Origin: a virus
Strand: one strand, 5' to 3'
Length of the DNA: 64,000 nt
IMG/VR virus record: IMGVR_UViG_3300010413_000005
Location: 49,819-113,818 of that record
Shown in pieces: positions 30,654-47,422 of this stretch; within the stretch, counting starts at the first letter, position 1, and each line of letters begins with the position of its first letter. Under the pieces are notes generated by a model. That model saw only the letters and a program-made list of their open reading frames with translations. It made no database searches and was not told where the DNA came from. Made by a program: the position numbers and the translations under genes.

Positions 30654-31892
30654 CTAAACATTCGATGTAGCAGACAGCGCAACGTTCAGAACGCCAGTTA
30701 TATCCTCTGCATCCTTATGGTAGAATAGCGCTTGAACGATCCGAAATCTAAATTTGCCCACGTGCAAATCCTTTTGATTAGCTGTTGTTTGTTGATCATA
30801 ATCGTCTAATAACCACAAACGGAAATTTTCGTCCAATCCCAACGACGTGAGAAAGTCATTGTTGCCGAAGTATTTTTGTACTGCCTCTTTCATCCGGGCG
30901 TGGTCCTTGCCCTTGTTAGTTACAAATTTGCCCAATATTTCGATGTCTGATTGGGTGATTGATACTTTTTTGCCGATGCCAGTCACCTTGCTAATTACGA
31001 AGATGTCTCTCAAAGCGTCTTTGCCATCCACTTCCGAGATATCTTCCAGCACTATTTCTGGCACTTTTTCCAACTCCACGTAATCCTGTCCGGTTGTTAC
31101 AACGATCTCGGGATAGTAAACGAATCTTATCAACAACACGGAACCGGAAGATTGCGAAGACGAAAGCGTGATTACTTTGTTATTCGAATCGTACGATTGG
31201 AACAAATCGTTCAACTTGTTGGAGTCGACGGATATGTTGTACACGGAATCGATGCTGACTATGTTGTACGGAGTCTCTATCGGAAAATCGTTGATCAAAT
31301 CAATCGTAGAAGAATTCGAAGCCAATTGAACGGAGTGTTCTCCGATCGGACGAATTTTGTCCTCCATATCTTTCAACAGAGAACGCCAAACGTAATCCTC
31401 CATCTCCTCTATGTCGCTTTCGTACATGACGCGGATTTCTTTCACGATCGGAGTGTAAATCGGATTGGTAGTTCTCAAATTGACTATGACTTGTAGAGTC
31501 TGAGCGGCGACCGGGAAACTGCTAATGTTGTTGTGAACTTCTTCTTCCGTATTCCAATTGTTGGAAGAAGCCACTATCCAAGCTCCGGCGCCGGAATTGT
31601 AATACAACTCCTGCGTTCCGTCGTGTAATCGATATTTGACATCCGTAACAGGAGAATTGGAAATCAACTTGTGTACGACGTCTACCATAAATCCGGTCCA
31701 TCTCTTCAAACTTTTCGGATTGGTTGACTTAGTTTTCACATACAAATCGTAATCGAGCGGATACGAACCGCTGGCATCTTCCAATTGAATCCAATTGTTT
31801 TCCGGAGGCAAACGCGTTTTGGGACCCAAGGTGATGCTATTTCGTTCGCTATCCAAGAATTCGAACGTTTTTATCAGAGTCTTTACTCTCAT
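30654..31892 (-). CDS. Putative tail terminator / neck protein with added domains
   Basis: Immediately upstream of the sheath; 412 aa, beta-rich. Confidence 0.5.
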   Translation of the reverse strand: MRVKTLIKTFEFLDSERNSITLGPKTRLPPENNWIQLEDASGSYPLDYDLYVKTKSTNPKSLKRWTGFMVDVVHKLISNSPVTDVKYRLHDGTQELYYNSGAGAWIVASSNNWNTEEEVHNNISSFPVAAQTLQVIVNLRTTNPIYTPIVKEIRVMYESDIEEMEDYVWRSLLKDMEDKIRPIGEHSVQLASNSSTIDLINDFPIETPYNIVSIDSVYNISVDSNKLNDLFQSYDSNNKVITLSSSQSSGSVLLIRFVYYPEIVVTTGQDYVELEKVPEIVLEDISEVDGKDALRDIFVISKVTGIGKKVSITQSDIEILGKFVTNKGKDHARMKEAVQKYFGNNDFLTSLGLDENFRLWLLDDYDQQTTANQKDLHVGKFRFRIVQALFYHKDAEDITGVLNVALSATSNV

Positions 31893-32518
31893 TTTTTACT
31901 CCTGGCCGCTGCAGCTTGTTCTCTAAACGAAGCTTGAAGCGCTTGCTGCCAATTTCTTTTCATCAACCTTTTCATTTCCGGATCATCGTTCGCGTTCCTC
32001 ATCCATGGTCTGGCCGGTATTTCTATGACATTGGTGCTTTCTTTCAAAGGATACCAATTCTGCATTGCTTCGAACAATTCTTTAGCGCGTCCGGTCAACT
32101 CGGAGGGATCTATCTTTCCGATACTCGCCTGCCAAAGCATATAAAACATGTTGCGCATCTTTTGACTCACCGGAATGGTTGCCCCTTCGTGTACTATCAC
32201 CGCTATGTTGTAAATATCGTCTCTACGCAAAACTCCGGCGAACGAGGTGAAATCGTTTACCACCTTCGAAGTGATAGCGTTGAACATTTCAGAAGTTCCT
32301 ACCAATGGTTTGTCGTCTCCCTTTATCGCTTGGGTGAGAGCGGCGTTGGCTGGCTTAACTCCGGCTTGTATAGCCCTCCTGTACGCCGCTTGTGCTACCA
32401 TACCGTTCAACTGCGTAGCTCTGCGCATATTCCTACGCATTATCTTGTCAAATTGCTTAGAATCCAACGCCGCTTCCATTTTCTTCATTCCCTTGAATGT
32501 GATCTTGGTTTTGGGCAT
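31889..32518 (-). CDS. Tail completion / virion morphogenesis protein
   Basis: NAALT..IKG..KPLV.T..M.N.IT, IAVIVHEG, IPARPW. Confidence 0.72.
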   Translation of the reverse strand: MPKTKITFKGMKKMEAALDSKQFDKIMRRNMRRATQLNGMVAQAAYRRAIQAGVKPANAALTQAIKGDDKPLVGTSEMFNAITSKVVNDFTSFAGVLRRDDIYNIAVIVHEGATIPVSQKMRNMFYMLWQASIGKIDPSELTGRAKELFEAMQNWYPLKESTNVIEIPARPWMRNANDDPEMKRLMKRNWQQALQASFREQAAAARSKK

Positions 32519-32931
32519 TACAGATTACCTCTATTCTGATTTCCCGGTTGTCGATCGGAAAAGAACGCCTTTACAGTGGTAGGTCCGCCTTGGTCATCCC
32601 AATGTGCCTCCGGAAGCATTTCGGTGATGTATACGTCTACGTTTATCGTTCCAATTTTCGTGAATCTATCTCCTCTTTTCAAAGCCACTCCAGACGCATT
32701 CAAATCAACGTATCTGAACAGCACGTATCCTATAGAGTCTTCGCGCGCGCCTCCCTTTTGCATGTCCAAAGAGACGTCCTTTCCCCATCTCGGTTGGCCG
32801 TTCACTATTACAGTGGAAGCTCGAGCTGATTGCTGTACGGTTTCTCTGAAATCGTCGTCGTAAAACGTATTAGCAGGCACAGAAACCTGTATGCTCACAG
32901 GAATGGGGTGTAACAATAACGGTATCGGCAT
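32518..32931 (-). CDS. Head-closure (stopper) protein
   Basis: Start MPIPLLLHP by TAATG coupling; LKRGDR; follows the adaptor. Confidence 0.65.
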   Translation of the reverse strand: MPIPLLLHPIPVSIQVSVPANTFYDDDFRETVQQSARASTVIVNGQPRWGKDVSLDMQKGGAREDSIGYVLFRYVDLNASGVALKRGDRFTKIGTINVDVYITEMLPEAHWDDQGGPTTVKAFFSDRQPGNQNRGNL

Positions 32932-34019
32932 TATCTGTAACTCCAATCAGCAGGAGTCGCCAACCCTATAGGCGCCCTGTACAATCTCAAAATGTCCAGA
33001 ATCTCTTGGTCTGACGTTATTCCGGACAATCCGTACGTTTTTCTCGTAGAGGTATCGGCCCATTTCCTTTTGTGTCCGTCGACCCATTCTTCAATTATCT
33101 GCCCGCCCATGACCGGAGGTGGTGTTATTCCGCCTGTTCCCGGAACGATCGGGTTGGTCAACTTCTCGATTACCAATTTGATCAAAGCTCGTTTGATCAA
33201 CGCGGGACACACTCCGTTGTCGAGATATCCGAAAACGCCCTTTACGTATTGATTCTGCCTTCCCTTGCGAAACAGCGTACGTCCGGTCCTCATCGGAGCC
33301 GTGTAAATATCTCTGTAATCATTCCAACTATCGATCAATTTGATTCGAGGATTTTGCTTGTCCATCGGATAAACGCTCGCATTATACACCTTGTAATAAT
33401 CGGTGTTTAGCGCGACAGTGTCGTCGTTTATCTTCAACGTTTCTATGGATATGATGGGAACTCCGAAGAACAACGTATCGGAATCGTTTCCGTCCACGTA
33501 AAGCTCGAGAGTGAGCGGATAAAACCATTGCCTAGTCGCTCGTTCTATGAACGGTTGCCACGTACATATTGACGCTTGTATCGCTGCGTCGTCCGGAGGA
33601 TTGGCGTTCAATCCGGCAGCTCTGACTTCGGCGATGCTTACATATTGTTGTCCGGCCGTCAATACGATTTCTGAATTGACCTGGAATTCTTCGTTGAAGT
33701 ATTGTTCCTGGCTTCCTACGGTGGCTTTGACAAACCATCTTATTTCGTGCGTCCCGAGAGGAGCGCTGGCCGGAACGACGTATCTGGCCACGTATCTTCC
33801 AGTTTCCACCCTGTCTCCGACCGGACAAGCATTCAAATTGACAGATTGCCTACCGGATAACGGATACACTTGGATAGGATTGTTCGGATCCGTGACTTTT
33901 TCGAATATTTGGAATTCTAATTGGGCAACATTCGTAGGAACGCCGTAGCTATCGTTAGTGTACACGTCCAATTTCGGGTTGCTACAATCGCTTACTTCGT
34001 TTCGCGTCAATGCTGGCAT
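32931..34019 (-). CDS. Head-tail adaptor with N-terminal Ig-like domain
   Basis: YVSIAEVR, FIERATRQWF, VDGND, G.QN.YV.G.FGY, P.LIKRA, ILRLYR. Confidence 0.75.
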   Translation of the reverse strand: MPALTRNEVSDCSNPKLDVYTNDSYGVPTNVAQLEFQIFEKVTDPNNPIQVYPLSGRQSVNLNACPVGDRVETGRYVARYVVPASAPLGTHEIRWFVKATVGSQEQYFNEEFQVNSEIVLTAGQQYVSIAEVRAAGLNANPPDDAAIQASICTWQPFIERATRQWFYPLTLELYVDGNDSDTLFFGVPIISIETLKINDDTVALNTDYYKVYNASVYPMDKQNPRIKLIDSWNDYRDIYTAPMRTGRTLFRKGRQNQYVKGVFGYLDNGVCPALIKRALIKLVIEKLTNPIVPGTGGITPPPVMGGQIIEEWVDGHKRKWADTSTRKTYGLSGITSDQEILDILRLYRAPIGLATPADWSYR

Positions 34020-34020
34020 A

Positions 34021-37000
34021 TCAACCTGCCGTTTCTACGGAATCGTTTATCACCAAATTGTAATACATGTCCACTTTCAAGCTGTCATTGTATTCTAAAA
34101 CGTCTCCGTTGTTTTCAACAAACCCCGTTGGAATGGGCGAACAAATGCGCCCTCCCGATATTGATAACGGTCCCGTGGGATTCACTGTGTGTATTTTGCT
34201 GTCTCCGTAATTGGCTCCGTTGAGTATTCCGTGTATGACCAATATAGGTTCTCCCGAATACGACACATCTTCCGTCTCTACGACGTCGGACAATTCCCTA
34301 TTGTATTGTGCTTCTATCAACAACGAATCCGTCAAATCTATTGCATCCGGAGGAACGAATAGCAAATCAGCCGTTATGGAGTCAGATATCGATATGGAAT
34401 CGGCCGCTTGTCCTCCCAGAATCAATACCGCGGACAATGAATCCGATACGCCGGCCGTATCTTGAATTGATCCGACTTTTTCCAGCGACGCATTGGCTTC
34501 ATCGATAACCGAAATGGAATCGTAAATCTTCACATCGAAGCTGGGAGCTTGATATTGCAACGAATCCGTTACGGATGCGGAATCCGAAATCGTTCGGCTG
34601 GCTTGGTGTTCTTTTGTTGGGAGCTCCGAAACCGCAGCCGAATCGTTTATCACAATGTAGAATATCTTCTCCAAAGAAGTCGTCAACTGGTCGGTGACGG
34701 ACGGAGAATCAGATATCGTACGTCCGAAATACATTTCAATTGTCGTTTGGTCGGACACCGGAATTGTGTCAGACAACGAGATTATTCCGCCCAACGATAT
34801 GTCTATCGTGTCCGATACTTCGGAAGTATCGTTTATGTAGCGAGATGCGTCGTGTTCTCGAGTAAGTTGTTCCGATACAGTCGGAAAATCCGACACAGTC
34901 TTGTCAAAATCGGCGACTCTGGACAATTGATCTGATGTCGAAATGGTGTCTGATAGCGCTATCTCGAAGGATGATTCTTGGCTATCCGAAGTACTGACGA
35001 AATCTCCTACGGTCCTGGATGATTCGTGAGAACGAGATAATTGTTCTGATAACGAAACGGAATCGTCTATTGTTATTTGAACCGTTCCGCTAAACGCGAT
35101 TTGTATTTGATCAGATACGGATACGGAGTCCGAAGTCGATCTGTCGTATTCGGTTGTCTTCAATACGGAGTCGTTCACGACCGCGGTATCCGAGAAAGTC
35201 AGATCAAATATGCCTGCTGATGCTTGGTCTGAAACGGATACGGAATCAGATAACGCTCTGTACGACTCCCAAGACCTCTGTATTGCATCTGAGGTGGAAA
35301 TCGAATCGGATATCTCCACGCCCAACGTTTTATATTCGGAAATCTGGTCAGACGTAGACGCTGAATCGGACGCGCTCCGGGAATATGACAATGCGTTCGC
35401 GACCTGATCGGACGTAGAAACGGAGTCGGATACTATTCGTCTGATCGATCCTTCTTCGAATTCTGTGGACAACGAATCGGATACATTGATCGAATCGCCG
35501 GCCGCTCTGCCGTACGACATCACTGCTTTGATGCTTTCGTCGCTGGCGTTTACGGTATCCGATATCGCATATGATCTTATCAACGAAGCTTTGAACGTGT
35601 CATATGGGACAACCCAGTTACGGATCAACCTTCCGAACGTCATGGACACTTTCAATTGATCCATGACTCCAACCATAGATTCGCCGTCTCTTTGCGTTTC
35701 TACGGATATGGTGTCGGACATTACGGTGGAATCGGAAATTGTTCTGATACAATTGAAAACGCGAGCGACTTGATCCGAAGTGGAAATTGAGTCGGATATC
35801 TTCGCTCCCAATTCCATTTCTACGGCGACGGAATCCGCTACGTTCAAGGAATCTACGGCTGATCTGCTGAATGCCAAGGACGGTTTGGTGGTGTCCGTAG
35901 TGACGGAAAAATCACTAATCGTCCTGGAATAAACCAGCGAAATATGCAATTCGTCGTCTATAGATATGGAATCTTGCTGGTATCCTTGTATCTCTACGAA
36001 AAAGTGTTCGCTCAAAGAAACGGAGTCGGATATCGTACGAACTGAGTCGAATACGCGGTTCAATTGATCGGACGTAGAAACGGAGTCGGATGCTGATCGT
36101 CCGGACTCCAGATTGGCTACTATTTGATCCGAAGTGGAAACAGAATCAGCGCTCGAGCGTCCAAGAATTCTATTTGTCTTCGTCGTGTCTGTCGTTATTA
36201 TCCAATCAGATTGCGTCCTATTCGCTTCCCATGATCGTTGAGTTTGGTCGTTTACGGTCGACGAATCGCTTATCGTCCTATTCGCTTCCCAAGATCGCTG
36301 CAGCGTATCAGTGACCGAAACTGAATTGGCATCTCCTCTGAAGAAATCAGCCTCTTTGTGCAATTGATCTGAGACAGATACGGAATCCGAATTCGAGCGC
36401 TCGAATGTCATTTCTACGCCCAATTGATCCGACGTAGAAACGGAGTCGCTTATCGTTCTGTTCGCTTCCCAAGAACGAGATATCTGATCTGCAACGGATG
36501 TGGAATCTGATACGGTTCTTCCGTATTCCAGAACCGTTGCAGATTGATCGTTTACTGATGCAGCATCCGATATCGTCCTGTCAGCTTGCCAATCGCGCGC
36601 GGTCGCGTCCGAGATTGACACGGAATCTGACAAAGTTCTGCCGAATTCCAACTCTGCTGCTACGGAATCGGTCGTTGACAGAGAATCGGATGCTGTCCTG
36701 CCGTATTCAAGCTCGGTGGCAATTTGATCGGAAGTGGAAGCAGTATCAGATTGTGTCCTATTCGCTTCCCACGCGCGCGCGGTCGAGTCCGTAACTGATG
36801 CCGTATCTGACAGATTGATTCTGTCGAATTCCATAACCGCTGCTATGGAATCGGAAACGGAAGCAGTATCGTTGATCGTTCTGGTGTATACTTGCCCGAT
36901 AAAACCGAGCGTGAACAAACATATCAGGTGATCAACGGTATTGTTGGTTGACCAATCGATGTAATCTGGATAATAAAAACGACCTACCTTGCCTGGAGAA

Positions 37001-38754
37001 TTCAAGTCTCCGGACGAATGCATCAATATGCCTTCAAATGTCTTCCTTCGTCGTTCGGATGTACTTCCGGTTTTGCCTAGCGCCATTCCGTCTTGATCCA
37101 CAGCTGTGTACGAAAATTTCACGTGTCCTTCGGAACACCCTCCGGCTTGTATTCCGACGTCGGTTCCGTCTCTATTCGTCAGAGCGTGAATCAGCTTCTT
37201 GGTGCCGTACGTTTGATCCAATCCGAATGAAGGAAGATATTGATCTGCGCCTCCGGTTCCGGAATTATCCGCTACCAAAGTCTCAACTTGGTACGGAAAA
37301 TAAGTCGTTCCTCCGAAATACAACGCCAAATAGAAAAAGTAATCGGCATTGGTTCCTACCCAAGTCCACCCGCTGGATGTGGTTTGCTCGAAAGATATTT
37401 CGTAATTTGCCGTTCCCGAAGTAGTCTGGCCATAGAATCCAGAATGTCTGTATATGAAGTCCGGTTGCCCGGTTTCTTCGGTCCCCACGAACGAATAACA
37501 TTGAGCGCCGGCTTGGCAATCCACCCATCCGGCGTTGCCGATTCCGGCCGCAGTTCTGAGTTGATCTGAATCAGAATCCAGACATTGTCCTATTATGTGG
37601 AGAGCGTCCGGCCTGAAATTCAATCCGCTCACGGCTCCGGCGCTACACAGAGCGGCGCCCACGGCAGCCTGGACGTCGGAACCTCCGAAAGCTATGTAAC
37701 TAAACGCGTATCCGCTGCCCATAACCGCGGACCAATTCAATCGGAATCCGTCGGTTATTCTGCTGTACGTGGCCAACAAATCCGGACTGCCTACCGTCGA
37801 ATTTCCGGCAATGTACAACGCTATAATTTCGCCATTTCTGCTGTATCCGGCCGCTCCGGATCCGGAATCGTGCCAAACTCCGAACGATCTTTGCGCCGCG
37901 GTCGTAACTCCGTCATCGGCTCCGATTCCGTGAGTGTATTCTATATCTGTCACGGCTGAATCCAGATTGTTTCGCGTGCCGTAGATAATCAACGCTTTAC
38001 AATCGAATCCGAGTCCGGTTATGTCTTGGTTACCTGTGGAAGTAGGGCTGGCGAAAGTTCCGGTAGCTATTCGAACATCTTTCGGAGTGGCAGTTTGTGG
38101 CGGCTGGATGACCATCATATGCGCCGTGTACGCATAAGACGTTATTCCGGGAATGTCGGTGGACGGATTGCCGGTGGAAGTGCTGGCGCTTGCAATTCCC
38201 TTCGTTTGTACGTAGCAAGTTACTTCGTCCAACAACACGCCTATGCCGACGTCCAACCTTTCAGTCCACCCGCTCGCAGGACTCGCTCCGGTGTTGTTCC
38301 CTTCGACCAGATTCGCCGAAGCTATTGCGAGACAATCGGCGACCGGAGTGGTTTCGGCCAACCAATTGTAAGTTCCGGAGTCTTCATAGTTTATGGAATG
38401 ACGCGCGATCGGTCTTGCCTTGTCCGCTCCGCGAATGCAATGGATGTATGCTACGGAATTTAGAGTGCCGATGCCGGGATAAGAAAACTGTACGCTGTTG
38501 GAATCTCCGCTCTCTCTTATCTTCCAAAATACTACGTCACGACTTGCGTTTTGATATCCTCCGAGAATGTGCCATCCAGATGGCGGATAAACAAATTCAT
38601 CTACGTTGGGATTGGCATTGGGCAAACAAATTTGGGCTATGAGCAGGTCGCCGGTAGTGGGAGGGCTGCCACCGTCGATGCCGGATATGTCTACGGTATT
38701 CGAAGAAGCGAAAGCCGTATTATACGCAATCCCTTCGTAAGACGGAATAGCCAT
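34021..38754 (-). CDS. Giant Ser/Thr/Asp-rich repeat virion protein (head/neck fibre)
   Basis: 1577 aa; N-terminal beta domains (GDLLIA...PSGW; TGTF...TGNQDITGLGF), then ~900 aa of ~20-aa repeats RT(I/A)SDSVS(T/V)SDQ. Confidence 0.7.
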   Translation of the reverse strand: MAIPSYEGIAYNTAFASSNTVDISGIDGGSPPTTGDLLIAQICLPNANPNVDEFVYPPSGWHILGGYQNASRDVVFWKIRESGDSNSVQFSYPGIGTLNSVAYIHCIRGADKARPIARHSINYEDSGTYNWLAETTPVADCLAIASANLVEGNNTGASPASGWTERLDVGIGVLLDEVTCYVQTKGIASASTSTGNPSTDIPGITSYAYTAHMMVIQPPQTATPKDVRIATGTFASPTSTGNQDITGLGFDCKALIIYGTRNNLDSAVTDIEYTHGIGADDGVTTAAQRSFGVWHDSGSGAAGYSRNGEIIALYIAGNSTVGSPDLLATYSRITDGFRLNWSAVMGSGYAFSYIAFGGSDVQAAVGAALCSAGAVSGLNFRPDALHIIGQCLDSDSDQLRTAAGIGNAGWVDCQAGAQCYSFVGTEETGQPDFIYRHSGFYGQTTSGTANYEISFEQTTSSGWTWVGTNADYFFYLALYFGGTTYFPYQVETLVADNSGTGGADQYLPSFGLDQTYGTKKLIHALTNRDGTDVGIQAGGCSEGHVKFSYTAVDQDGMALGKTGSTSERRRKTFEGILMHSSGDLNSPGKVGRFYYPDYIDWSTNNTVDHLICLFTLGFIGQVYTRTINDTASVSDSIAAVMEFDRINLSDTASVTDSTARAWEANRTQSDTASTSDQIATELEYGRTASDSLSTTDSVAAELEFGRTLSDSVSISDATARDWQADRTISDAASVNDQSATVLEYGRTVSDSTSVADQISRSWEANRTISDSVSTSDQLGVEMTFERSNSDSVSVSDQLHKEADFFRGDANSVSVTDTLQRSWEANRTISDSSTVNDQTQRSWEANRTQSDWIITTDTTKTNRILGRSSADSVSTSDQIVANLESGRSASDSVSTSDQLNRVFDSVRTISDSVSLSEHFFVEIQGYQQDSISIDDELHISLVYSRTISDFSVTTDTTKPSLAFSRSAVDSLNVADSVAVEMELGAKISDSISTSDQVARVFNCIRTISDSTVMSDTISVETQRDGESMVGVMDQLKVSMTFGRLIRNWVVPYDTFKASLIRSYAISDTVNASDESIKAVMSYGRAAGDSINVSDSLSTEFEEGSIRRIVSDSVSTSDQVANALSYSRSASDSASTSDQISEYKTLGVEISDSISTSDAIQRSWESYRALSDSVSVSDQASAGIFDLTFSDTAVVNDSVLKTTEYDRSTSDSVSVSDQIQIAFSGTVQITIDDSVSLSEQLSRSHESSRTVGDFVSTSDSQESSFEIALSDTISTSDQLSRVADFDKTVSDFPTVSEQLTREHDASRYINDTSEVSDTIDISLGGIISLSDTIPVSDQTTIEMYFGRTISDSPSVTDQLTTSLEKIFYIVINDSAAVSELPTKEHQASRTISDSASVTDSLQYQAPSFDVKIYDSISVIDEANASLEKVGSIQDTAGVSDSLSAVLILGGQAADSISISDSITADLLFVPPDAIDLTDSLLIEAQYNRELSDVVETEDVSYSGEPILVIHGILNGANYGDSKIHTVNPTGPLSISGGRICSPIPTGFVENNGDVLEYNDSLKVDMYYNLVINDSVETAG

Positions 38755-38775
38755 ATCACTTCACCCTACCACTCC

Positions 38776-39486
38776 TTACACGTACGCCCAACCGTTTACG
38801 GCTATGGGCAAATTGGTTTTACCATCCGGACCGGTTCCGGGCACCATTCTTTCAAATGGCTGATCGTATTCGTCGAACCATTCTCCGTTTTTGTATTTAG
38901 CCAAAGCAGTTCTACCTGTGAAAGTCCTTACGTGGACCAACGTGTCTTCGATCGGTTTGGTAGACAAATCGTTGAATACTACTTTCGGCGACTCCGGCGT
39001 TTCTATCCACAACGAAGAGATGCCTATCTTCGGATAAAATCCGGAGCCGTTTACAATCGCGGTTATGTACACGCGTATCCACAAATCTCCCATGTATTTA
39101 GATATGTAGTCTCCGTCTCTCCCTTCTATCACTTTCACGTAATTATACCAATCTTCAAACGTTATGAAAATCGGATCGATGGTAGATATCAATCGCGGGT
39201 TGTTTGTTTTTTGGGGATTCTCTCCCCATATTGAAGCCGAAATCTGCGATTCGTTTCCTCCGTCTATCCGATTCGCTCTCACGTGCAATTGTGAATTCCC
39301 GAATTCTATCGGTCCCTTGGATTCCATGTGTACATCGAAGAAATTGCCCTCTGCTCCTTCTTCGATGTACACGTACGCGTCATCACCCAACAACGGATTC
39401 ATAGCAAAGAACTTCTCCGTATCGCTGGTCGCTTTCCAATCGCCTACGTATATGCCGTCTCCGATGGGGTATAGAATCTGCGTCAT
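38776..39486 (-). CDS. Hypothetical structural protein
   Basis: 236 aa, ATGA-coupled; TQILYP.GD start; in the structural operon. Confidence 0.55.
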   Translation of the reverse strand: MTQILYPIGDGIYVGDWKATSDTEKFFAMNPLLGDDAYVYIEEGAEGNFFDVHMESKGPIEFGNSQLHVRANRIDGGNESQISASIWGENPQKTNNPRLISTIDPIFITFEDWYNYVKVIEGRDGDYISKYMGDLWIRVYITAIVNGSGFYPKIGISSLWIETPESPKVVFNDLSTKPIEDTLVHVRTFTGRTALAKYKNGEWFDEYDQPFERMVPGTGPDGKTNLPIAVNGWAYV

Positions 39487-39914
39487 CCTGCCGTTTCTCC
39501 TGCTCCTTCGTTGATCAGAACGTTCGACAACGCCGTAGCGAGCGCTTCCGATTCGTTCGTGCTTACGCCAGCGGTCACCAACGCACTCGCCAGATTGCCT
39601 TCCAAGGCACCGTTAGAACCGACTCCGGCGAGCCAAGTCCGCGCAGTGCTGATATGCGTCAACACCATATCGAACCAATCGTTGGCGCGCCAAAAGCGGA
39701 TGATTCCGCTGAAGTTAGCCTTGGCCGCGATTACGCCGGCCTTTACTCCGAAAGCCAACACTTGGTCGACTATCACTTGGTTTATCGATGTGCTGGCTGC
39801 TACTTCGGCCGCGGTGCTTCCGGGATTAGTAGCCAAATCGCTCAATATCGCTCCGTCGTTGGAGCGTATTGCGCTTGTGAAATCCGAAGCGTTCGCTATC
39901 CGTCTCTCTGCCAT
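39483..39914 (-). CDS. Hypothetical protein, possible winged helix
   Basis: ILSDLATNPGSTAAEVAASTSINQVIVDQVLAFGVKAGVI resembles a wHTH; AAAGGAG SD. Confidence 0.5.
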   Translation of the reverse strand: MAERRIANASDFTSAIRSNDGAILSDLATNPGSTAAEVAASTSINQVIVDQVLAFGVKAGVIAAKANFSGIIRFWRANDWFDMVLTHISTARTWLAGVGSNGALEGNLASALVTAGVSTNESEALATALSNVLINEGAGETAG

Positions 39915-39962
39915 GATCCACTCTCCTTTCGGGTCTGAGCCCGAATCCGACGTGGATCCGGA

Positions 39963-40298
39963 CTATGTCGCTTTTATTATATGCCTACAAGCAGGATCGG
40001 AACAAATTCTGGATTGTTCGATTTCTGGTTTGTTTGACTCGTGCGCTTTCGTTTCTTTGCCGCATTTCCGACATGGAAACGAAGGGTGCTCTCCTGGTGA
40101 AGTGTCTTCGGGAGGAGCGTCTTGTTCCTCCCGGCATTCCGCGTTGGAACAGATTCTTCGATTGCTACCTGCGTTGGGAGAGCCACCATGTGACTTCGTT
40201 TCTTTGCCGCATTTAGGACACGGAAACAACGGCGCTTTGGGCACGTTCTCTATGCTGACCGCCAACAGGTCGGAGAACTTTTCGTGATCCGAAGTCAC
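39963..40298 (-). CDS. Tandem Zn-ribbon protein
   Basis: Two copies of FPCxKCGKETKxH...RICSxxxCR. Confidence 0.6.
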   Translation of the reverse strand: MTSDHEKFSDLLAVSIENVPKAPLFPCPKCGKETKSHGGSPNAGSNRRICSNAECREEQDAPPEDTSPGEHPSFPCRKCGKETKAHESNKPEIEQSRICSDPACRHIIKAT

Positions 40299-40300
40299 GA

Positions 40301-40783
40301 TTACACGATCCGTACGTTGTATGTCAACTTCAGTTTGTCAGCCGTGGTCTTATTCACCGAAGTGAAAACGGCTCTCATCAACGCCGAACCTCCGGGAGAC
40401 GTGTTCTGATTGAGAACGCACACCTCTTGGATGTTATTCGCCGATATGGAACCGCCACCGCTGGGATAGCTGATGACCAATTGAAGAGTACGCGTGCCGG
40501 ATAGCAACGTCTTGGAATCCGCCGTGTTTAGCGAGGCCGCGACCGGAGACAACACGTTGGATTGCCCGCTGTTCGCTGCGGCGCCGCAAGTGCCGATTCG
40601 GAATTGATCCCAAATATTGGTATTCAACCCGGTGCACATCCGCCAAGTTTGACGCTTGCCGGTATTCACGACCAGGTTGTGTGTGACGATACGCTTGATT
40701 ACTTCCGGACCGTTCTTGCCGTCGCGAATAACTTCAACGGTAACGAATCCGCCGAACTTTGCATTATCTTTGAGTGGTAGCAT
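40301..40783 (-). CDS. Virion structural protein (NLVVNTG family)
   Basis: HNLVVNTG, IGT, I.EV.V.N, LMRAVF..VNKT..D.L.LTY; a pattern common in phage structural operons; AAGGAGG SD. Confidence 0.65.
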   Translation of the reverse strand: MLPLKDNAKFGGFVTVEVIRDGKNGPEVIKRIVTHNLVVNTGKRQTWRMCTGLNTNIWDQFRIGTCGAAANSGQSNVLSPVAASLNTADSKTLLSGTRTLQLVISYPSGGGSISANNIQEVCVLNQNTSPGGSALMRAVFTSVNKTTADKLKLTYNVRIV

Positions 40784-42500
40784 CGATAGCCTCCTTTATG
40801 ATTGCCATATTTCTTTCGGCTTCACGGAACGCTTCTGGAGGCGTTCCCTCTGGAAACAATTCTATGACCTTTTGTGCCCAAAACAAACTTTCTTCCAATT
40901 TCCCCAATTCTCCACAAACCATAGCTAGGCGTTGGGCCGGAATGTGTCCGTAATAGGACAAATCAATCCACCACACAGTGAACGGAGGGTCACCCATAGT
41001 GGTGGTAGCGTACACGTAGAATCTGTACGCTTTCTCGTATTCCTTGGATAACATGGCCATATCGCCTAACCAAACCCAATGTTCGGTACGACACCAATCG
41101 TCCTTCGTACAACCCATAAGGCATTCGTAGGCTTCTTTTCGTTCTCCGCGGCGCATTCGTTCTTTTGCCAACATCAATCTGGCTTGATATTTTTGAACTC
41201 CGTTGTTGGAAACGCCTAAAAATTGCTCCAAGCGCTCGATCGCCTTTTGCGGATTCAATTCGCGCCATTCTTGTCCGAGATAGAAAAGACTTTGCACACT
41301 TTCTCCGGTGCGCCAATCGTCCATCAGTTGTTTTCTATTTTGTGCCCGTCTTTGTACCGCTCGAGTCTCCGCCCTTTGTTGGCTTCGTTGATGAAGCGTT
41401 TTCACGAGCGGCAATTGAACGCACAGAGCCTTTTCCGGCCAAATCAATTCGTTGTGGACCGGTCGCCGGAACCGGATATCCGGCCGATTGCGAAACAACC
41501 AAGGAAAAGCCCACCGCTGTCCGTTGCCTTGTCGGAATACAAATCCCACGGAACAATTGGACGGTATGATGGTATCGAGATTCAACAATACGTCCATGCC
41601 TTCGACGAGATATTCGTGCCCTTCGGTCATGAATATCCATTCTCCGGAACATTGTTCGATACACTGATTGCGACACCAACTGAAATGTATTTTGTCTCCT
41701 CCCAAATCCTCTTCGGGAGGTCCGCTCGGTCGATCTAAGTAGAAAACCTTGTCGGCGTACTGTTTGGCTATCTCGAATGTGCGATCTTTCGATCTAGGAT
41801 CCACACCTACGACAAATTCATCTGCGATTCCGCGATACGTAGCCAACGTATTTGCTAGATCCAATTCTTCGTCTCGGACCGGAAGCGTCACCGACATCTT
41901 GTATTTCTTACGGGCGATATCTCCGCAAATGCCTAACAGATATCCGCCGATAACTTCGACTCTGACACATTCCCAATACTCTTTGAGATAATCCAGAAAT
42001 TGTTTCGCCGTCCATTTACGCGTGTGTTGTCTCTCTTCGTCCGGACCCAACCTATTGTTCGGAACGCTGATGAAGGCATAATTGGAATTGTCCGCGATGA
42101 ATGACAACAATCGCGCGCGCGCGCGTTTACCTAGATGCTCGATGAATTCGGTGGAAACAAATACGTCGCTGACCGGAATCGAGTCAACTTCTGATCTCAA
42201 ATCGGCTTTGTGCGTGATATCTACGCAGCCAGTATCCATTGCGTGCTTCAACGCGATTTCGCTGTGGTCGACTACGCATATGGATACTTTCGGGAGGACT
42301 TCGGAGAACACTTCGGCGAAAGAACCGACTCCGCCTCCGACGTCAGTCAGCGTCGCCGCTTTATATGGAGTGCATTGCGCTATTCTTTGATAAACGCGAA
42401 CTAGAGCGCTTTTCCTCCAAGTCTCGTGCCCTTCTTCGCCCCATATTTTATCCCAAACTAATTCGCTGTTTGCCTTATCGGCTATTCGGTCGATGGTCAT
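40764..42500 (-). CDS. SAM methyltransferase - GT2 glycosyltransferase - TPR fusion
   Basis: MTase: DVGGGVG, VVDHS, STEFIEHL, ISVPN. GT2: SVTLPVRDEE, DEFVVGVD..S.DRT.EIA, FSWCRN, SGEWIF, FRNRPDIRF..PVH. TPR: SLFYLGQE..., EHWVWLGD...YEKA. Confidence 0.85.
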   Translation of the reverse strand: MTIDRIADKANSELVWDKIWGEEGHETWRKSALVRVYQRIAQCTPYKAATLTDVGGGVGSFAEVFSEVLPKVSICVVDHSEIALKHAMDTGCVDITHKADLRSEVDSIPVSDVFVSTEFIEHLGKRARARLLSFIADNSNYAFISVPNNRLGPDEERQHTRKWTAKQFLDYLKEYWECVRVEVIGGYLLGICGDIARKKYKMSVTLPVRDEELDLANTLATYRGIADEFVVGVDPRSKDRTFEIAKQYADKVFYLDRPSGPPEEDLGGDKIHFSWCRNQCIEQCSGEWIFMTEGHEYLVEGMDVLLNLDTIIPSNCSVGFVFRQGNGQRWAFPWLFRNRPDIRFRRPVHNELIWPEKALCVQLPLVKTLHQRSQQRAETRAVQRRAQNRKQLMDDWRTGESVQSLFYLGQEWRELNPQKAIERLEQFLGVSNNGVQKYQARLMLAKERMRRGERKEAYECLMGCTKDDWCRTEHWVWLGDMAMLSKEYEKAYRFYVYATTTMGDPPFTVWWIDLSYYGHIPAQRLAMVCGELGKLEESLFWAQKVIELFPEGTPPEAFREAERNMAIIKEAIDATTQR

Positions 42501-42551
42501 GCCATAACACCTATTATGCTGCGGATAGATGGTTGCCCATAATCCTTTGGT

Positions 42552-43238
42552 TTACAATACTTCTCCCCAAAACGCTTTCGAAGTCATCGCCCAACCCGGA
42601 TAACCGTCCATCTCCTTTTTGACCGGAGTCTTGTAGCTGGGCAACAGCGCTTTCGCATGTGCTTGCAAATGCGCTTTCGCGGTCGCGATCTGCTGCGCGC
42701 TCATTTTGGCTTGGGACACTCTAGCGAGAGCGTTGGCGAGATGAATCTTATCGACGGAGCTGTTTTCGGACGCGCTCTTTACGTTCGCGTTGTGATGTGG
42801 AAGCATACGGAGCGACCGCGGCACGGTTTTGCCTTCCTTGTCCTTTTTGCCGCCTGGAAGAATCATCGCGAACGCCGCATCCGGAAGGTTGTTTATGAAC
42901 GCCGCGGTCCAAACTGCCTTGGTAATCGGTATGGCTTTCTTACGATACGAAGTGAACCTTTCTACTTCTTGCATATCTCCGAATTCGAAGTTGCCGTATT
43001 TGTCCCGTTTGTAGGACATGGCGTAATAGGATTCCTTGTCGTCCTCTTTGTAGGTTTCGACAATCAATCCGGAGCCGAATACTTCGACCACGTACGCGTA
43101 CGCTTTGGTCGAGTTGAGTTTCATCTTTACGTGCTCTCTGCAAGCGTTCGTGAGAGCCGTAGTGAATTGCTTTAGAGACTCCCCATTAGCCAATTCGATA
43201 GTTGATTTGTGGACAGCGACGTTTTGTTCCATGGCCAA
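42552..43238 (-). CDS. Putative internal head protein (WTAAFINNLPDAAFA domain)
   Basis: INNLPDAAFA...LPHH...HLANALAR motif seen in phage head-assembly proteins; K-A/S linkers; C-terminus KAFWGEVL resembles the scaffold end. Confidence 0.55.
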   Translation of the reverse strand: MAMEQNVAVHKSTIELANGESLKQFTTALTNACREHVKMKLNSTKAYAYVVEVFGSGLIVETYKEDDKESYYAMSYKRDKYGNFEFGDMQEVERFTSYRKKAIPITKAVWTAAFINNLPDAAFAMILPGGKKDKEGKTVPRSLRMLPHHNANVKSASENSSVDKIHLANALARVSQAKMSAQQIATAKAHLQAHAKALLPSYKTPVKKEMDGYPGWAMTSKAFWGEVL

Positions 43239-43259
43239 CTCCTTTGCGTAATCGCTATA

Positions 43260-43691
43260 CTATAATTTGTTGCTATGGATAGGAAATTTCCGTTTGGGTG
43301 AATGTCTTCGTTTGCCGACGTGATTGACCGTTACTCGAGCGCTCGGTTGAGCAGCGTGCGCTACCAAGGTAAGTCGAACGTCATCCACGAATAGATCTAT
43401 TTTTTCTCCGCCCTTTACCGCTCCGCTAGGCGGAATTCTTTCTATTTCGTATATGATCGATCGAAAAGATCGCGGTCGCGAAACCGAATATTGAACCCCG
43501 ATTTTCTTAGTGGCCTCTTCGTTACAATTGGCGCACCTACAAGTTACGAGGTGATTTTCCACGAGAGACACTCCGGTTATTCTGGATTGAAAATCGGAGC
43601 GCTCGAGCATCGGCAACCATTCGCGTGCTTGTTCTTCGTCCGACAAATCTACACGAATAGTATCACCATCTATCGTGTGTATTTTGAGCAA
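43260..43691 (-). CDS. Hypothetical protein
   Basis: 143 aa, AGGAG SD, CRCANC. Confidence 0.5.
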   Translation of the reverse strand: MLKIHTIDGDTIRVDLSDEEQAREWLPMLERSDFQSRITGVSLVENHLVTCRCANCNEEATKKIGVQYSVSRPRSFRSIIYEIERIPPSGAVKGGEKIDLFVDDVRLTLVAHAAQPSARVTVNHVGKRRHSPKRKFPIHSNKL

Positions 43692-43708
43692 AACTGCTCC
43701 TATGGTGG

Positions 43709-44074
43709 CTATTCAGAAGATTCGTTCGTTTCGTCTACCAGATTGATTCCCCTCAGCGCTGGAGATTCGAAATCCGCAGATTTGGCCGCTTCTCTTTTCG
43801 ACCTTCTGCTGTGTCTCGCTTCTTTATCGACATTGGTCTGTTCGGAGTCTTCTTTTTCTTCTTGAACAGGTTCTTCTTTTTCCGATGACACCACCACTCT
43901 GTCGATCAATTTAGCGCAATACGATTCCAGATACTCCAATTCAGCGTCGTTCAACTGATACATCGTTCCCGGTCTGACGTGCATAGATCCTTCGAAAGAA
44001 CGAGCGATGTCGGACGGAAAATCAATTTGTTGGATGGGTGCCGATTTGGACACCACAATAACGTTGAGTTTCAT
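43709..44074 (-). CDS. Hypothetical protein
   Basis: 121 aa, GAGGTG SD, acidic tail. Confidence 0.55.
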   Translation of the reverse strand: MKLNVIVVSKSAPIQQIDFPSDIARSFEGSMHVRPGTMYQLNDAELEYLESYCAKLIDRVVVSSEKEEPVQEEKEDSEQTNVDKEARHSRRSKREAAKSADFESPALRGINLVDETNESSE

Positions 44075-44083
44075 GATTCACCT

Positions 44084-44536
44084 CTAATCGTCGTCGCCTT
44101 CTACTTCGTCGTCGTCATCATCTTCGTCGTCGTCTTCGTCGTCATCGACGTCCATTGGTTCGTCGATTTCCGAAGACGGTTCTCCGTCGCCCAACTCCTG
44201 CTTTACCAGAAGTGCTTTGACCATCTCCGGTTTCTTCATATCCGATTCCATGTCCAAATTGAACTGTTCGGATTGTCCGAGACGAATCAAGTCCGTCTTG
44301 GTCATGGCGTCCAAATCGGACTTGGTGTAAACCTTTTTGACTGGCTTCGGTTCCTCTTTGGGTTTGGCCGGAGCTGTCTTCACTTCTTGAAGCATGGTTA
44401 CGCTGAATTCAGCCTGCCTCTTGTAGTACATAATTTCGCGGTCGTCTGTGATTATTTGCGGTGTTCCGCGAACGAATTTGCGACCGCGCGCGTCGTAAGT
44501 CTCACATTTGTTTAGAACCACTCGAGCTTTTGCCAT
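44084..44536 (-). CDS. Rho-N/HeH-like domain protein with acidic tail
   Basis: YTKSDLDAMTKTDLIRLG...MKKPEMVKALL; follows the MCP; poly-Asp C-terminus. Confidence 0.6.
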   Translation of the reverse strand: MAKARVVLNKCETYDARGRKFVRGTPQIITDDREIMYYKRQAEFSVTMLQEVKTAPAKPKEEPKPVKKVYTKSDLDAMTKTDLIRLGQSEQFNLDMESDMKKPEMVKALLVKQELGDGEPSSEIDEPMDVDDDEDDDEDDDDDEVEGDDD

Positions 44537-44578
44537 CTTTGTATCTCCTTTTGACCAATTAATGGCTGGGTTGACGAT

Positions 44579-44640
44579 GAGCGACTAAGTGTCACCCTTT
44601 TGACGCTTAAAGCTCGCCAACCTCAAGGGCTAGCGAGCTT
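44579..44640 (-). terminator. Double stem-loop after MCP
   Basis: Minus strand aagctcgctagcc-cttga-ggttggcgagctt (13 bp including GU), then gggtgac-actta-gtcgctc; weak U-tract. Confidence 0.5.
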
Positions 44641-44662
44641 CGAAGCTTCGTGTGGACGGCGA

Positions 44663-45868
44663 TTAGACGCCTGTTCCGATGTTCTTGGTCTTGACGATTG
44701 CCGTCAATTCCTCAAACTGTACGGCGACTTTCGCCGTGATGGCGTATTGGTTTACGCCCTTGTAGATGTCGCGGTCCTTCTCGATCCTGATGTCGCGTCC
44801 GATACCCACGATGAAGTTATTCATGTGTGTAAGCATCAGTTGCGGATAGGCTCGATACGTGACTTTGACCGTGTCTCCGTCGCCGATCGCCCCACCGCCG
44901 ATACGCGCTATAGTTCCGTTGGTCGCGTCCAGGGTGTAATCGGTTGCGGAAATGTACGGAGTAACCGGAGTCGCGTCCAACGTACTCGGGACAACTACCA
45001 CGGATTCCACCGGTCCATTCTTCAAAGCAACAGCGGTCGTACCAGAAAGAACGATGTGCTCTGTGATAGGCGGTTTGAACTCCCACAACGGAACCGGAAC
45101 AGCGGTAATACCGAACGGACCAGGCATCCCGCCTCCGCCACGGGCCGCATCGTCACCTAGTGCGGTCGCGCGCGTCGACAGTTTCTCCATATATATCTGC
45201 CATAGATCCGGAGACAGGTACCATCGCAAGTTGTTTCGATTCCGACGGAACTTGGTAGGCATCGCCAAGATCGAATCCGAGAACACTGACAGGCCTATAT
45301 TTTTGCCCTCCGCGTCCTTCACATTCGCGCCGTCCGCTAACAGACTCCATCCGTCTTGCAACTTCAGGTAGCTGTCTACGCGGTACTTGGTGTTATCGCC
45401 GTTGTCCAGATAATCGCTCTCGAGAACGGCCGGACCTAGCTTGTTGCCGTTGATGTATAACTCTTCCAGGTCGTTAGCCAACCTGGTGGCCATCAATCGA
45501 ACGATCGTATCTTCGATGCTGTCGCCTTCGATGTTCAATTCACGGAAGTTGTCTCCGATTTCGAACGGCACCATGATCTCGCTGGGAGCCAAGGTGATTT
45601 TCGAAGTGGTAATTCCGCGTCGAACTCCGGGATCGACTGCTTCGCTCTTGGGGACAGCCGCGCGCCGGCCAACGCCGATCTTATCGATTTCGAGCGATTC
45701 ATTCCTGAACCGTACGATTCGCGCGTTATCCTTCAAGACTGTCTCATCGATCACGAAATCGATGAAACGGTCGGATTGTGCGGGATTCAGTTTCCCTGCG
45801 GTGGCCAGATCGTCAGCAACTATTGCCGCCTTACTAACCAATTCCTCGTTTGAAATGTTTCCTGGCAT
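44663..45868 (-). CDS. Major capsid protein (HK97 fold, PBSX XkdG-like)
   Basis: GKLNPAQSDRFID, IDKIGVGRR, NIEGDSIEDTI, ANDLEELYINGN, DGW, MPTKFRR, LMLTH.NN.IVGI.RDIRIE. Confidence 0.93.
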   Translation of the reverse strand: MPGNISNEELVSKAAIVADDLATAGKLNPAQSDRFIDFVIDETVLKDNARIVRFRNESLEIDKIGVGRRAAVPKSEAVDPGVRRGITTSKITLAPSEIMVPFEIGDNFRELNIEGDSIEDTIVRLMATRLANDLEELYINGNKLGPAVLESDYLDNGDNTKYRVDSYLKLQDGWSLLADGANVKDAEGKNIGLSVFSDSILAMPTKFRRNRNNLRWYLSPDLWQIYMEKLSTRATALGDDAARGGGGMPGPFGITAVPVPLWEFKPPITEHIVLSGTTAVALKNGPVESVVVVPSTLDATPVTPYISATDYTLDATNGTIARIGGGAIGDGDTVKVTYRAYPQLMLTHMNNFIVGIGRDIRIEKDRDIYKGVNQYAITAKVAVQFEELTAIVKTKNIGTGV

Positions 45869-45916
45869 CTCACTATCTCCTTTTGGTTGTTCGTTAGGAA
45901 CCGGCAGATCCGGCTG

Positions 45917-46873
45917 TTACACTACACCCGTGAAAAGGCTTTTGCCCTTTTGGACTTGCGTTTCGGTGTTCCCGTCGTCGATTGACCGAGACGGATTGTG
46001 TGGTTGTTCCAGAGCATCCAGACGCTTCACAACGTCGTCGATGTTCTTTTGAGTCTTCTCTTGTCCCGCCTTGACCACGGTGGCCAAATCGCGAATGGCA
46101 GATACCAATTCGCCTTGAGCTTCCGGAGCTTGTCCTTCGCTCTTGGACACGCCGGCCAACGCCGGTTTGGTCGTGTTGGGATTGGAATGGATGGCCACGG
46201 CCGGAACCGATGAATTCGGAGACATACCTACCGGAACCGCCTCCATCATCAGTTTCTGCAGCGTATCGATCGCTTGCTGAAGCTGCGTAATACGCTCCGG
46301 AGTGAAATGCTTCGCTTTCGCGATAGCGTCCAGAACGGTGCCCGCGATTTCGCTAGCAGAAGGAGCAGCCGGAGCAGCCGGAGTCGAATCGGCGCCCTCC
46401 GCGTCCTTCTTCACCTTCTTCATGGGCGGTTTCATTCCCTGGAATCCCTTTTCGAATTCCTCCATGGCTTTGGTCAGAGCTTCGTCCTTGAGTCCGGCCG
46501 CTTCGAACTTCGATTTGGCGAAAGCGATCGGATCGAAATCCGTCTTGTCGCCCTTCTCTACGTTCTCCGACTTATCGGAATCGTTGCTCTTGTTTGCGCC
46601 CTTTTCCACATCTGAAACGATGCTGTCCACAAGGCTGTTCACTTTATCGAGAGCTTTTTGGACAGCGTCGTTCTCTACCTTTTCGACGTCCAAAGCAACC
46701 TTGGTGACATCATTGTTTTCAGTAGCTGGCGTGTTTTGGTCTTTATTTCCTGGCATTGTATCCTCCTGTAATCGCTTTGCTACTAAAAATTCGACTTGGT
46801 TAGCTGGAGTGTCCACTAGGGATACTTCGTTAACCTGCAGATCTAAAAATCGCCTATTGGCTTCTTTCGGCAA
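45917..46873 (-). CDS. Capsid scaffold; long form carries the protease EVSLVD strand, nested short form starts at 46756
   Basis: TTG 46873 (GGAGA SD) gives N-terminal NEVSLVDTPAN; internal ATG 46756 has an AGGAGG SD; coiled-coil VVKRLDALE; ends KSLFTGVV. Confidence 0.8.
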   Translation of the reverse strand: MPKEANRRFLDLQVNEVSLVDTPANQVEFLVAKRLQEDTMPGNKDQNTPATENNDVTKVALDVEKVENDAVQKALDKVNSLVDSIVSDVEKGANKSNDSDKSENVEKGDKTDFDPIAFAKSKFEAAGLKDEALTKAMEEFEKGFQGMKPPMKKVKKDAEGADSTPAAPAAPSASEIAGTVLDAIAKAKHFTPERITQLQQAIDTLQKLMMEAVPVGMSPNSSVPAVAIHSNPNTTKPALAGVSKSEGQAPEAQGELVSAIRDLATVVKAGQEKTQKNIDDVVKRLDALEQPHNPSRSIDDGNTETQVQKGKSLFTGVV

Positions 46874-46888
46874 AGTATTTCTCCATTT

Positions 46889-47422
46889 TTACTCTTTCAA
46901 TTTCTGCGTCATAGCCTTGCCACCGATGGAAAGGCCGGTTATGCTGCCTTCTTTTATCTTCTTCCACACGGCCGCGTCGTTCACCTTTATGACCATGATC
47001 CAGGTGCCCGCTTTTACGATGCTGGAACCGATGGACATATCTATCGGAGCCGTATACGATTGTCGCAGCTCGAATCGCTGTTTGAAATCCTTGTGCATAT
47101 AGCCCAAGGTGGTAGACTTGTTGTACGAAGCCAAGAAATCGCCGGCCGCCTTTTCGATGACGGCTGCGGACATGATGTCGTAATGTGCGTCGACGGTTTC
47201 CGGCTGTAACACCAGGCCGGTTATCTCTTGTTTGTCTTCATTGGCCTTGGTGATCGGTACGAATAAACGAAAGTCTTCTCCGCGGTCGTCGCTTCGAGCT
47301 TCAACTGCGTCGATTGTAGGCGTCAAAGCGTTCTTTTGGATCGCGTCCAAAATGGCCAACGCCCTGTATGCCTTGAATACCGCTCGGATAGCGGTTTCTA
47401 ACTGTTGGTTGCTGTGTGCCAT
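46889..47422 (-). CDS. XkdF-like prohead serine protease
   Basis: GLVLQPETVDAHYD.M....IEKAA..F, MH, SYTAP, GTWIM, WKKIK.G.ITGLSIGG. Confidence 0.88.
   Translation of the reverse strand: MAHSNQQLETAIRAVFKAYRALAILDAIQKNALTPTIDAVEARSDDRGEDFRLFVPITKANEDKQEITGLVLQPETVDAHYDIMSAAVIEKAAGDFLASYNKSTTLGYMHKDFKQRFELRQSYTAPIDMSIGSSIVKAGTWIMVIKVNDAAVWKKIKEGSITGLSIGGKAMTQKLKE

Follow-up and report, generated by a model that had tools for sequence, protein, structure and literature searches.

What does an enzyme that joins a methyltransferase to a glycosyltransferase do in the structural operon of a tailed phage, and on which molecule does it act? The question is raised by a stretch of 64,000 nucleotides (the window, to which all coordinates refer unless a record label is given), the right-hand 64 kb of IMG/VR record IMGVR_UViG_3300010413_000005, which is 113,818 bp long, carries direct terminal repeats and is rated 100% complete. 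The source phage is known as a metagenomic contig. Between about 12 kb and 52 kb of the window, the genes run on the minus strand and make up the structural operon of a myophage, in which a 578-residue protein (P0001; 40764-42500, minus strand) combines a methyltransferase (MTase), a glycosyltransferase family 2 (GT2) and a tetratricopeptide repeat (TPR) domain. Its gene overlaps by 20 nt the start of the next one, which encodes p160 (P0122; 40301-40783, minus strand; phrog_5417), a beta protein of 160 residues, and the fifth gene downstream encodes a 1577-residue repeat protein, REP (P0002; 34021-38754, minus strand; phrog_12240). A preliminary description made from the sequence had reported the three-domain enzyme in the head/neck operon, the overlap of its stop with a structural gene and the large protein five genes downstream, and all three observations stand. 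We propose, with a probability of about 0.55, that the 578-residue protein is a late, phage-specific protein glycosyltransferase/methyltransferase acting on an accessory fibre module made of p160 and REP.

Domain architecture and predicted fold of the enzyme

The three domains of the enzyme, all encoded on the minus strand, are the MTase (residues ~1-197, nt 41910-42500), GT2 (residues ~198-400, nt 41301-41909) and TPR (residues ~401-578, nt 40767-41300). They are confirmed by an AlphaFold2 (AF2) model based on an 81-sequence alignment (predicted local distance difference test, pLDDT, 95.4; predicted template modelling score, pTM, 0.92), by Foldseek and VIA structural matches, and by a search of PDB sequences with the family profile. 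The top VIA match is the glycocin glycosyltransferase ThuS (Z 22.7 over 323 residues), which aligns chain residues 53-419 with model residues 193-578; its relative SunS matches model residues 199-578 at Z 22.6, with a root-mean-square deviation of 2.8 over 269 residues (PDB entries 7msn, 7msp and 7msk; matches start in the model at residue 193 for ThuS and 199 for SunS). In the profile search the GT2 domain finds GmaR, the Listeria flagellin O-linked N-acetylglucosamine (O-GlcNAc) transferase (PDB 22ao), at an E-value of 1.4e-11, and consensus TPR proteins are matched at 3e-13, in keeping with the paired helices that the model places at residues 402-577. Residues 1-197 match class I MTases at Z 18-19. 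The likeness to GT2-TPR protein glycosyltransferases that the preliminary description had pointed out is therefore confirmed, with ThuS and SunS at Z ~22.6 and GmaR at the E-value just given. Judged by its model, the protein has the structure of a protein glycosyltransferase of the SunS/ThuS/GmaR kind, to which a class I methyltransferase is fused. No membrane segment is seen in the secondary structure of the model.

Conservation across the 81 homologues, at ~50% identity, extends to the putative catalytic centres of both domains. Motif I of the MTase (D53-x-G55-G56-x-x-G59) is invariant, as are D234, D239, E293, H295, E296, H349 and N350 of the GT2 domain. The position of the DxD motif reads T-E293-G-H295-E296, with E-[GA]-H-E invariant in all 81 sequences; E293 and H295 align with both Asp residues of the GmaR DAD motif, and the DAD of SunS lies likewise at that position. 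From this alignment we infer that E293-x-H295 may form, with H349, a rebuilt metal site. The residues E118, E121, H122 and H159 are also invariant; we had taken them, presumptively, to resemble a Hen1/UbiG-like metal site, an idea that was set aside. About one third of the homologues, the window enzyme not among them, carry a Cys-rich insertion of 17-25 residues (C-x2-C ... C/CC) in a loop of the GT2 domain (alignment A1 columns ~327-345, e.g., P0003, P0005, P0011 and P0022), which may be a zinc-binding element.

The probable fibre module downstream of the enzyme

In the late operon the MTase-GT2-TPR gene and the p160/REP module lie between the genes of the major capsid protein (MCP; 44663-45868, minus strand; phrog_1623, E 1e-71) and the head-tail adaptor (32931-34019, minus strand; phrog_442; syntenic in relatives), a placement that for the enzyme also holds in relatives. 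The closest link is to p160. All open reading frames (ORFs) of 37 loci were scanned with hidden Markov models (HMMs); 35 of these loci include DNA downstream of the enzyme gene, and in 34 of the 35 the next gene, which often overlaps it, encodes a p160 homologue. The AF2 model of p160 (pLDDT 93.3) matches best, in VIA, a tail protein domain of Haloferax tailed virus 1 (HFTV1; Z 11.5, 128 residues), behind which come, at Z 8.5 and 7.7 respectively, a phi812 baseplate protein and one chain from the entry for the fibre I/fibre-tail-adaptor of phage GP4, and Listeria phage A511 gp105 is among its Foldseek matches. The protein is represented by 65 representative clusters in a set of 1.84 billion proteins, and its distant homologues, whose genomic contexts were drawn from IMG/VR, are encoded immediately before genes for tail fibres or tail spikes, with neither a glycosyltransferase (GT) nor a repeat protein nearby. 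Because of these fold matches and contexts, p160 is best regarded as a fibre-adaptor-type virion protein; the overlap partner called simply structural in the preliminary description is indeed of virion type and can now be named more exactly as this fibre-adaptor-like, nearly constant protein. Sequence searches with p160 returned no family of known function, its PDB sequence search was empty, and a locus search with the single protein P0165 gave no match. In the ESM Atlas, queries with p160 and REP led to unnamed viral clusters with no structure.

In the GT-linked subfamily of p160, and there alone, five Ser/Thr positions (84, 108, 114, 129 and 146) are conserved, which is suggestive of candidate acceptor sites, with the proviso that subfamily-specific conservation is expected anyway. 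In a metagenomic protein of 1287 residues (P0171), nine consecutive p160-like stretches occur, so that the p160 fold appears usable as a tandem module too.

REP consists of an N-terminal non-repeat domain (residues 1-620, nt 36895-38754, minus strand), a repeat region rich in Ser-Asp (SD) (residues 621-1480, nt 34315-36894, minus strand) and a C-terminal non-repeat part of ~97 residues. The repeats, put at roughly 45 in the preliminary description, are Ser/Thr-dense and 20 residues long as it stated, and their number is slightly lower: 40 units with the motif lie between residues ~621 and 1480, with a spacing of exactly 20 residues in 29. The unit consensus is roughly F/Y-G-R-T-I-S-D-S-V-S-V/T-S-D-Q-L-x-x-E-L-E, with two Asp that hardly vary and four strongly conserved Ser positions. 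At the DNA level, a pattern for three tandem D-[ST]-x-[ST]-x-[ST]-[DE] units with a 60-nt period matches the window 5 times and never in 100 shuffles. The repeats contain 19.8% Ser, 9.7% Thr, 11.3% Asp and 28% hydrophobic residues, with 1% Pro and 3% Gly, and hydrophobic residues alternate with Ser (I-S-D-S-V-S-V-S-D) in an amphipathic unit with conserved I/V/L positions. Such an alternation is what beta strands with a serine ladder along one side would show, unlike a mucin or serine-rich-repeat (SRR) protein, which would be disordered, and the repeats as read from their sequence fit a folded beta fibre. The mucin/SRR analogy of the preliminary description was dropped on account of this composition and of the lack of any GT-B enzyme (Glycos_transf_1 match) in the genome. 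REP is probably a long head or neck fibre, its head/neck placement being read from gene order. PDB sequence searches with the repeat region and with the N-terminal domain found no match, nor did a related-locus search with the repeat region as a single protein.

The repeat gene of closely syntenic relatives always lies between p160 and the head-tail adaptor, and the encoded lengths vary widely: across seven relatives (L004, L024, L034, L005, L003, L011 and L001) and the window gene at 34021-38754, they are 0, 236, 308, 965, 1434, 1509, 1577 and 1636 residues. Such a range is the behaviour of an accessory fibre. In L024, the head-tail adaptor gene is ~100 residues longer instead. Several larger phages have, in addition to the giant REP downstream, a short protein with a few REP-type repeats directly upstream of the enzyme; these are HMM-positive, and 186-315 residues long, on the plus strand at L013:9062-9886, L014:8942-9886 and L018:9343-9900, and matched at BLAST level only in L015 and at L032:9239-9850.

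Distribution of the family and recurrence of the trio

The single-chain MTase-GT2-TPR architecture is uncharacterised, yet the family is large: full-length homologues at ~50% identity form at least 283 clusters, all on metagenomic or viral contigs of up to 185 kb, and 37 IMG/VR loci contain one. A GTDB scan with the family alignment found no relative in 185,579 bacterial and archaeal species (one genome each). The family thus appears restricted to non-integrated phages, and a role in lysogenic conversion is unlikely. Its genes lie among the head and neck genes of large, uncultured myophages. Among 50,697 GenBank phages there was no match by megablast with the 8.5-kb region or by tblastn with the enzyme, and hence no cultured relative.

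A REP-type protein lies within 10 kb of the enzyme in 25 of the 32 loci with enough flanking sequence, and three further loci (L007, L012 and L019) have REP elsewhere in the same record; a weak REP match is all that was found in genome G028. The structural genes of most loci with a nearby REP are too diverged for BLAST detection. The enzyme and an SD-repeat protein co-occur far more often than expected by chance. For the converse test, an IUPAC scan of IMG/VR for three tandem REP units yielded 99 stretches, and 28 of the 80 loci returned were REP-like by tblastn. The P0001 family was found in none of the 20 REP-like records searched whole, four complete or near-complete genomes included, from which it follows that REP does not depend on this particular enzyme.

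What do these genomes have in its place? In G011 and G018, proteins of ~1000 residues (L164:4490-7654, plus strand, and L165:9150-12125, minus strand, respectively) carry the domains in permuted order, that is, GT2, TPR, Methyltransf_23 and a C-terminal partial GT4. These fusions are ~22% identical to the window enzyme and form a separate lineage, and their gene comes immediately after that of an MCP of the Phage_capsid_4 type, with a p160-like gene 1-2 kb after it and REP within 5 kb in G011 and as a match in the same record (L123) in G018. By an argument of the Rosetta-stone type, the permuted fusion indicates that GT2-TPR and methyltransferase act in one pathway. The complete 61-kb phage G013 has a sugar island just upstream of the portal (L163, G013:14500-34400, minus strand). 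The island holds three GT2 genes and one for an RGP-like GT, together with genes for an FkbM methyltransferase and a GDP-mannose 4,6-dehydratase; downstream of it, in L163, are a p160-like gene (5556-6068) and a 647-residue REP gene (728-2671). Several GT2 genes and one GT4 gene occur in G010, and GT4 genes lie a few kb from REP in G007. Of the five complete or near-complete genomes that have REP and lie outside the P0001 family, four thus contain other GTs; among marine phages, genomes with GT genes are few (PMC12801897). Three other lineages rebuild the trio of enzyme, p160 and REP with different enzymes, and the return of one gene order (GT/MTase, p160, REP) with enzymes only ~22% identical points to a functional link, not mere shared ancestry. 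Of the two partners, p160 is the constant one; REP, which is dispensable and varies in length, is either an acceptor or a bystander.

Proposed function and competing explanations

Within the proposal put forward here, the TPR arm would dock a virion protein, and the GT2 domain would move one sugar from a host nucleotide-sugar to Ser/Thr by way of the putative metal site formed by E293-x-H295 and H349. The fused S-adenosylmethionine (SAM)-dependent methyltransferase would then methylate that sugar or the same protein. The predicted targets are the downstream accessory fibre module, namely p160 and, where present, REP, whose strands would display their serine ladder. No other GT2 or GT4 (Glycos_transf_1) match and no NAD-dependent sugar epimerase/dehydratase was detected in the phage genome; with one GT and no sugar-nucleotide genes, the transfer of a single sugar supplied by a host nucleotide-sugar is more plausible than the building of a multi-sugar glycan. 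The methylated O-glycan coat envisaged in the preliminary description was an overreach on these grounds, and the multi-sugar coat was dropped; one sugar per site, possibly methylated, is more likely than a glycan coat.

Several observations weigh against the proposal. The Pfam scores of the single sequence all fall under the curated cut-offs (Methyltransf_23 25.5 bits against 27; Glycos_transf_2, PF00535, 16.1 bits against 23.3; TPR_2 22.5 bits), with PF00535 present in the precomputed annotation of many homologues, and the canonical DxD of GT2 enzymes is replaced by E-x-H. The O-MTases RedM, DhpI and MfnG score like the protein N-terminal MTases NTMT1/2 against the MTase domain; with small-molecule O-methylating and protein N-terminal types at equal Z, the methyl acceptor is not readable from the fold. 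The co-occurrence with REP, suggested as a check in the preliminary description and real in the 25 loci, is incomplete in both directions: REP is missing from G002 (98% complete) and G027 (100% complete), which retain both the enzyme and p160, and the complete genomes G007, G008, G010 and G013 have REP without the P0001 family, G008 having neither a GT2 nor a GT4 that could be found. Many of the 37 loci are near-duplicates, so that the counts overstate the number of independent events. Since p160-like genes precede ordinary tail fibres in phages without a GT, the adjacency of enzyme and p160 could reflect linkage within a module and not a relation of enzyme and substrate. Finally, the catalysis, the sugar, the acceptor and the methylation site are predictions from comparative and structural evidence, namely folds, conserved motifs, gene order, restriction to phage DNA and comparative association.

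If the neighbourhood is only a permissive insertion spot in the late operon, the enzyme could instead glycosylate or methylate some other virion protein, such as the capsid, a decoration protein, the sheath or the tail fibres. The persistence of the enzyme in G002 and G027 without REP would suit this, as would the position of the permuted fusion directly after the MCP gene in G011 and G018 and the SD motif on a baseplate-adjacent protein (17068-17928), and there is the precedent of mycobacteriophages, in which sugars are attached to subunits of the capsid and tail tube (as cited in PMC12619734). We nevertheless consider it unlikely, since random insertion would leave unexplained both the close, overlapping pairing of enzyme and p160 in 34 of 35 loci and the rebuilding of the trio in three architectures. 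A composition scan found no Ser/Thr-rich C-termini in MCP and the sheath- and tube-region proteins, which speaks against this explanation and against a mycobacteriophage-style acceptor on the capsid, the second possibility in the preliminary description.

A target outside the protein world, whether phage DNA (modified-base glucosylation) or, in the manner of a moron, host envelope glycans or lipopolysaccharide (LPS), is suggested by annotation: the functional category of PHROG 13126 is "moron, auxiliary metabolic gene and host takeover", and the Joint Genome Institute (JGI) name of some homologues is "glycosyltransferase involved in cell wall biosynthesis". It is quite improbable given that the closest structures are peptide and protein GTs with the same GT2-plus-TPR layout, that the gene sits among the late structural genes and is coupled in translation to one for a virion-type protein, that the absence of the family from the 185,579 bacterial and archaeal genomes argues against a lysogenic-conversion gene, and that the model shows no membrane segment. 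Very doubtful, in our judgement, is a role mainly in assembly, in which the TPR domain chaperones or docks fibre subunits and a degenerate GT2 domain is dead or merely binds nucleotide-sugars. The E-x-H in place of DxD would be expected of such a protein, TPR domains are commonly scaffolds, and GmaR is bifunctional, being both an enzyme and an anti-repressor. Yet the replacement residues, the downstream His and the SAM motif I are invariant across the 81 sequences, two conserved catalytic-type domains are unlikely to be kept as dead weight, and D-x-H metal sites are active in other GT-A enzymes (GT27). The proposed modification of the p160/REP module is accordingly the reading retained here.

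A broader version of this reading is offered tentatively and is, as a whole, somewhat unlikely: fibre glyco-methylation might be a recurrent, modular system of many uncultured tailed-phage lineages, in which a p160-type adaptor and an SD-repeat fibre are served by interchangeable enzyme sets (MTase-GT2-TPR; the permuted GT2-TPR-MTase-GT4; separate GT2s with an FkbM MTase and sugar-nucleotide genes), the 20-residue serine ladder would be a dedicated acceptor array, E-x-H a new active-site variant, and the baseplate-adjacent motif a mark of further targets.

Relation to known systems and significance

How does the enzyme compare with characterised glycosyltransferases? The glycocin S/O-glycosyltransferases SunS and ThuS resemble it in having a GT2 domain followed by a helical, TPR-like substrate-docking domain, and each attaches one sugar to the side chain of a peptide (PMC12457901, PMC8620827). 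They differ in sequence (15-17% identity), in their canonical DxD and in lacking a fused methyltransferase, and they act on a small bacteriocin precursor that is secreted and whose gene lies next to that of an exporter. No glycocin precursor, export or disulfide genes were found among the ORFs scanned, the neighbours of the enzyme being virion genes; by analogy, the enzyme would work like the glycocin GTs and is not a member of a glycocin cluster. GmaR shares the GT2-plus-TPR layout and is the best sequence-profile match to the GT2 domain; it differs in its DAD in place of E-G/A-H, in lacking an MTase, in being cellular and in its second, regulatory role. Like the activity proposed here, it modifies a structural protein, glycosylating Ser/Thr of one that forms filaments.

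Among tailed phages, the mycobacteriophages come closest, with MTase and GT functions inside the head gene block. In Corndog, an O-methyltransferase (gp35), two GTs (gp36/37) and a GlcNAc-transferase (gp38) are encoded between portal and protease, and Cluster O mycobacteriophages likewise have an O-methyltransferase and GTs inside the head operon (PMC4351075). Such enzymes, in Che8, Corndog and Myrna among others, are proposed or shown to act on virion proteins, and Freeman 2023 reports glycans on capsid and tail-tube C-termini, as that work is cited in PMC12619734. These are separate genes in siphophages of actinobacteria with C-terminal capsid and tail-tube acceptors, whereas the window phage is a myophage with one tri-domain chain, no such tails and an adaptor/fibre module as the likely acceptor. 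In the literature we searched, virion glycosylation by a tailed phage's own enzymes was reported for mycobacteriophages only, where it affects antibody recognition.

Two other systems share parts of the arrangement. A064R of chlorovirus PBCV-1 joins two GT domains and a methyltransferase in one chain, which transfers and methylates a glycan of a virion protein; it differs in belonging to a eukaryotic giant virus, in its N-linked capsid glycan, in the folds and order of its GT domains and in lacking a TPR. In the staphylococcal SdgA/SdgB (Ser-Asp repeats) and the Clostridioides difficile SgtA (BclA3), dedicated GTs act on nearby Ser/Thr-ladder fibres, although SD-dipeptide and collagen G-x-T repeats differ from the 20-residue amphipathic unit of REP.

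Should the enzyme be active on the adaptor/fibre module, sugar decoration of virion fibres, possibly with methylation, would be widespread, would have evolved repeatedly by domain shuffling and would come with a recognisable acceptor module. Such a modification would bear on adsorption, stability, the stickiness of particles in the environment and the evasion of host or immune recognition, and a compact one-chain enzyme with a defined repeat acceptor could be of use in glyco-engineering. The reciprocal co-occurrence tests carry a warning here: the giant REP is a partner that some of these phages do without, and it would be unsafe to take it for the substrate.

Neighbouring genes and further observations

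Three genes separate p160 from REP, all on the minus strand. The first encodes a protein of 111 residues (39963-40298) whose translation shows two zinc-ribbon-like CPxC...C..C motifs (of the CPKCGKETK type), with weak zinc-ribbon Pfam matches under cut-off; it falls into no assigned family, and no BLAST homologue was detected in the related loci. A 143-residue Ala-rich protein (39483-39914), read from the translation, has no family match. The third, of 236 residues (38776-39486), stands directly upstream of REP; its homologues, 81% identical in L001 and 35% in L011, also directly precede the repeat gene, and it is kept together with full-length REP in close relatives.

The remainder of the operon, likewise on the minus strand, has the order of a myophage. 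TerL (50479-51969), portal (48695-50479), a minor head protein (47453-48685), the protease (46889-47422) and a scaffold-like protein (45917-46873) precede the MCP, and several small ORFs lie between the MCP gene and the enzyme, p160 and REP genes. The head-tail adaptor gene comes directly after REP, with a 3-nt gap from the REP stop to the adaptor start, and is followed by neck1 (31889-32518), the sheath (28321-30642), the tape measure (23857-26280) and then baseplate genes. In a promoter/terminator scan of 33000-46500, counts equalled those in shuffled sequence.

The SD motif of REP recurs elsewhere in the operon. A 286-residue protein (17068-17928, minus strand), whose gene adjoins that of a baseplate wedge, carries three copies at its N-terminus when translated (GDSVSTSDSI, LDESISLS and SDTISLSDSL), and the motif common to the two proteins may be a strand used in the assembly of both or a motif at which both are modified. 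The MCP has an immunoglobulin (Ig)-like insertion (phrog_807, residues 279-340), a possible further surface-exposed decoration.

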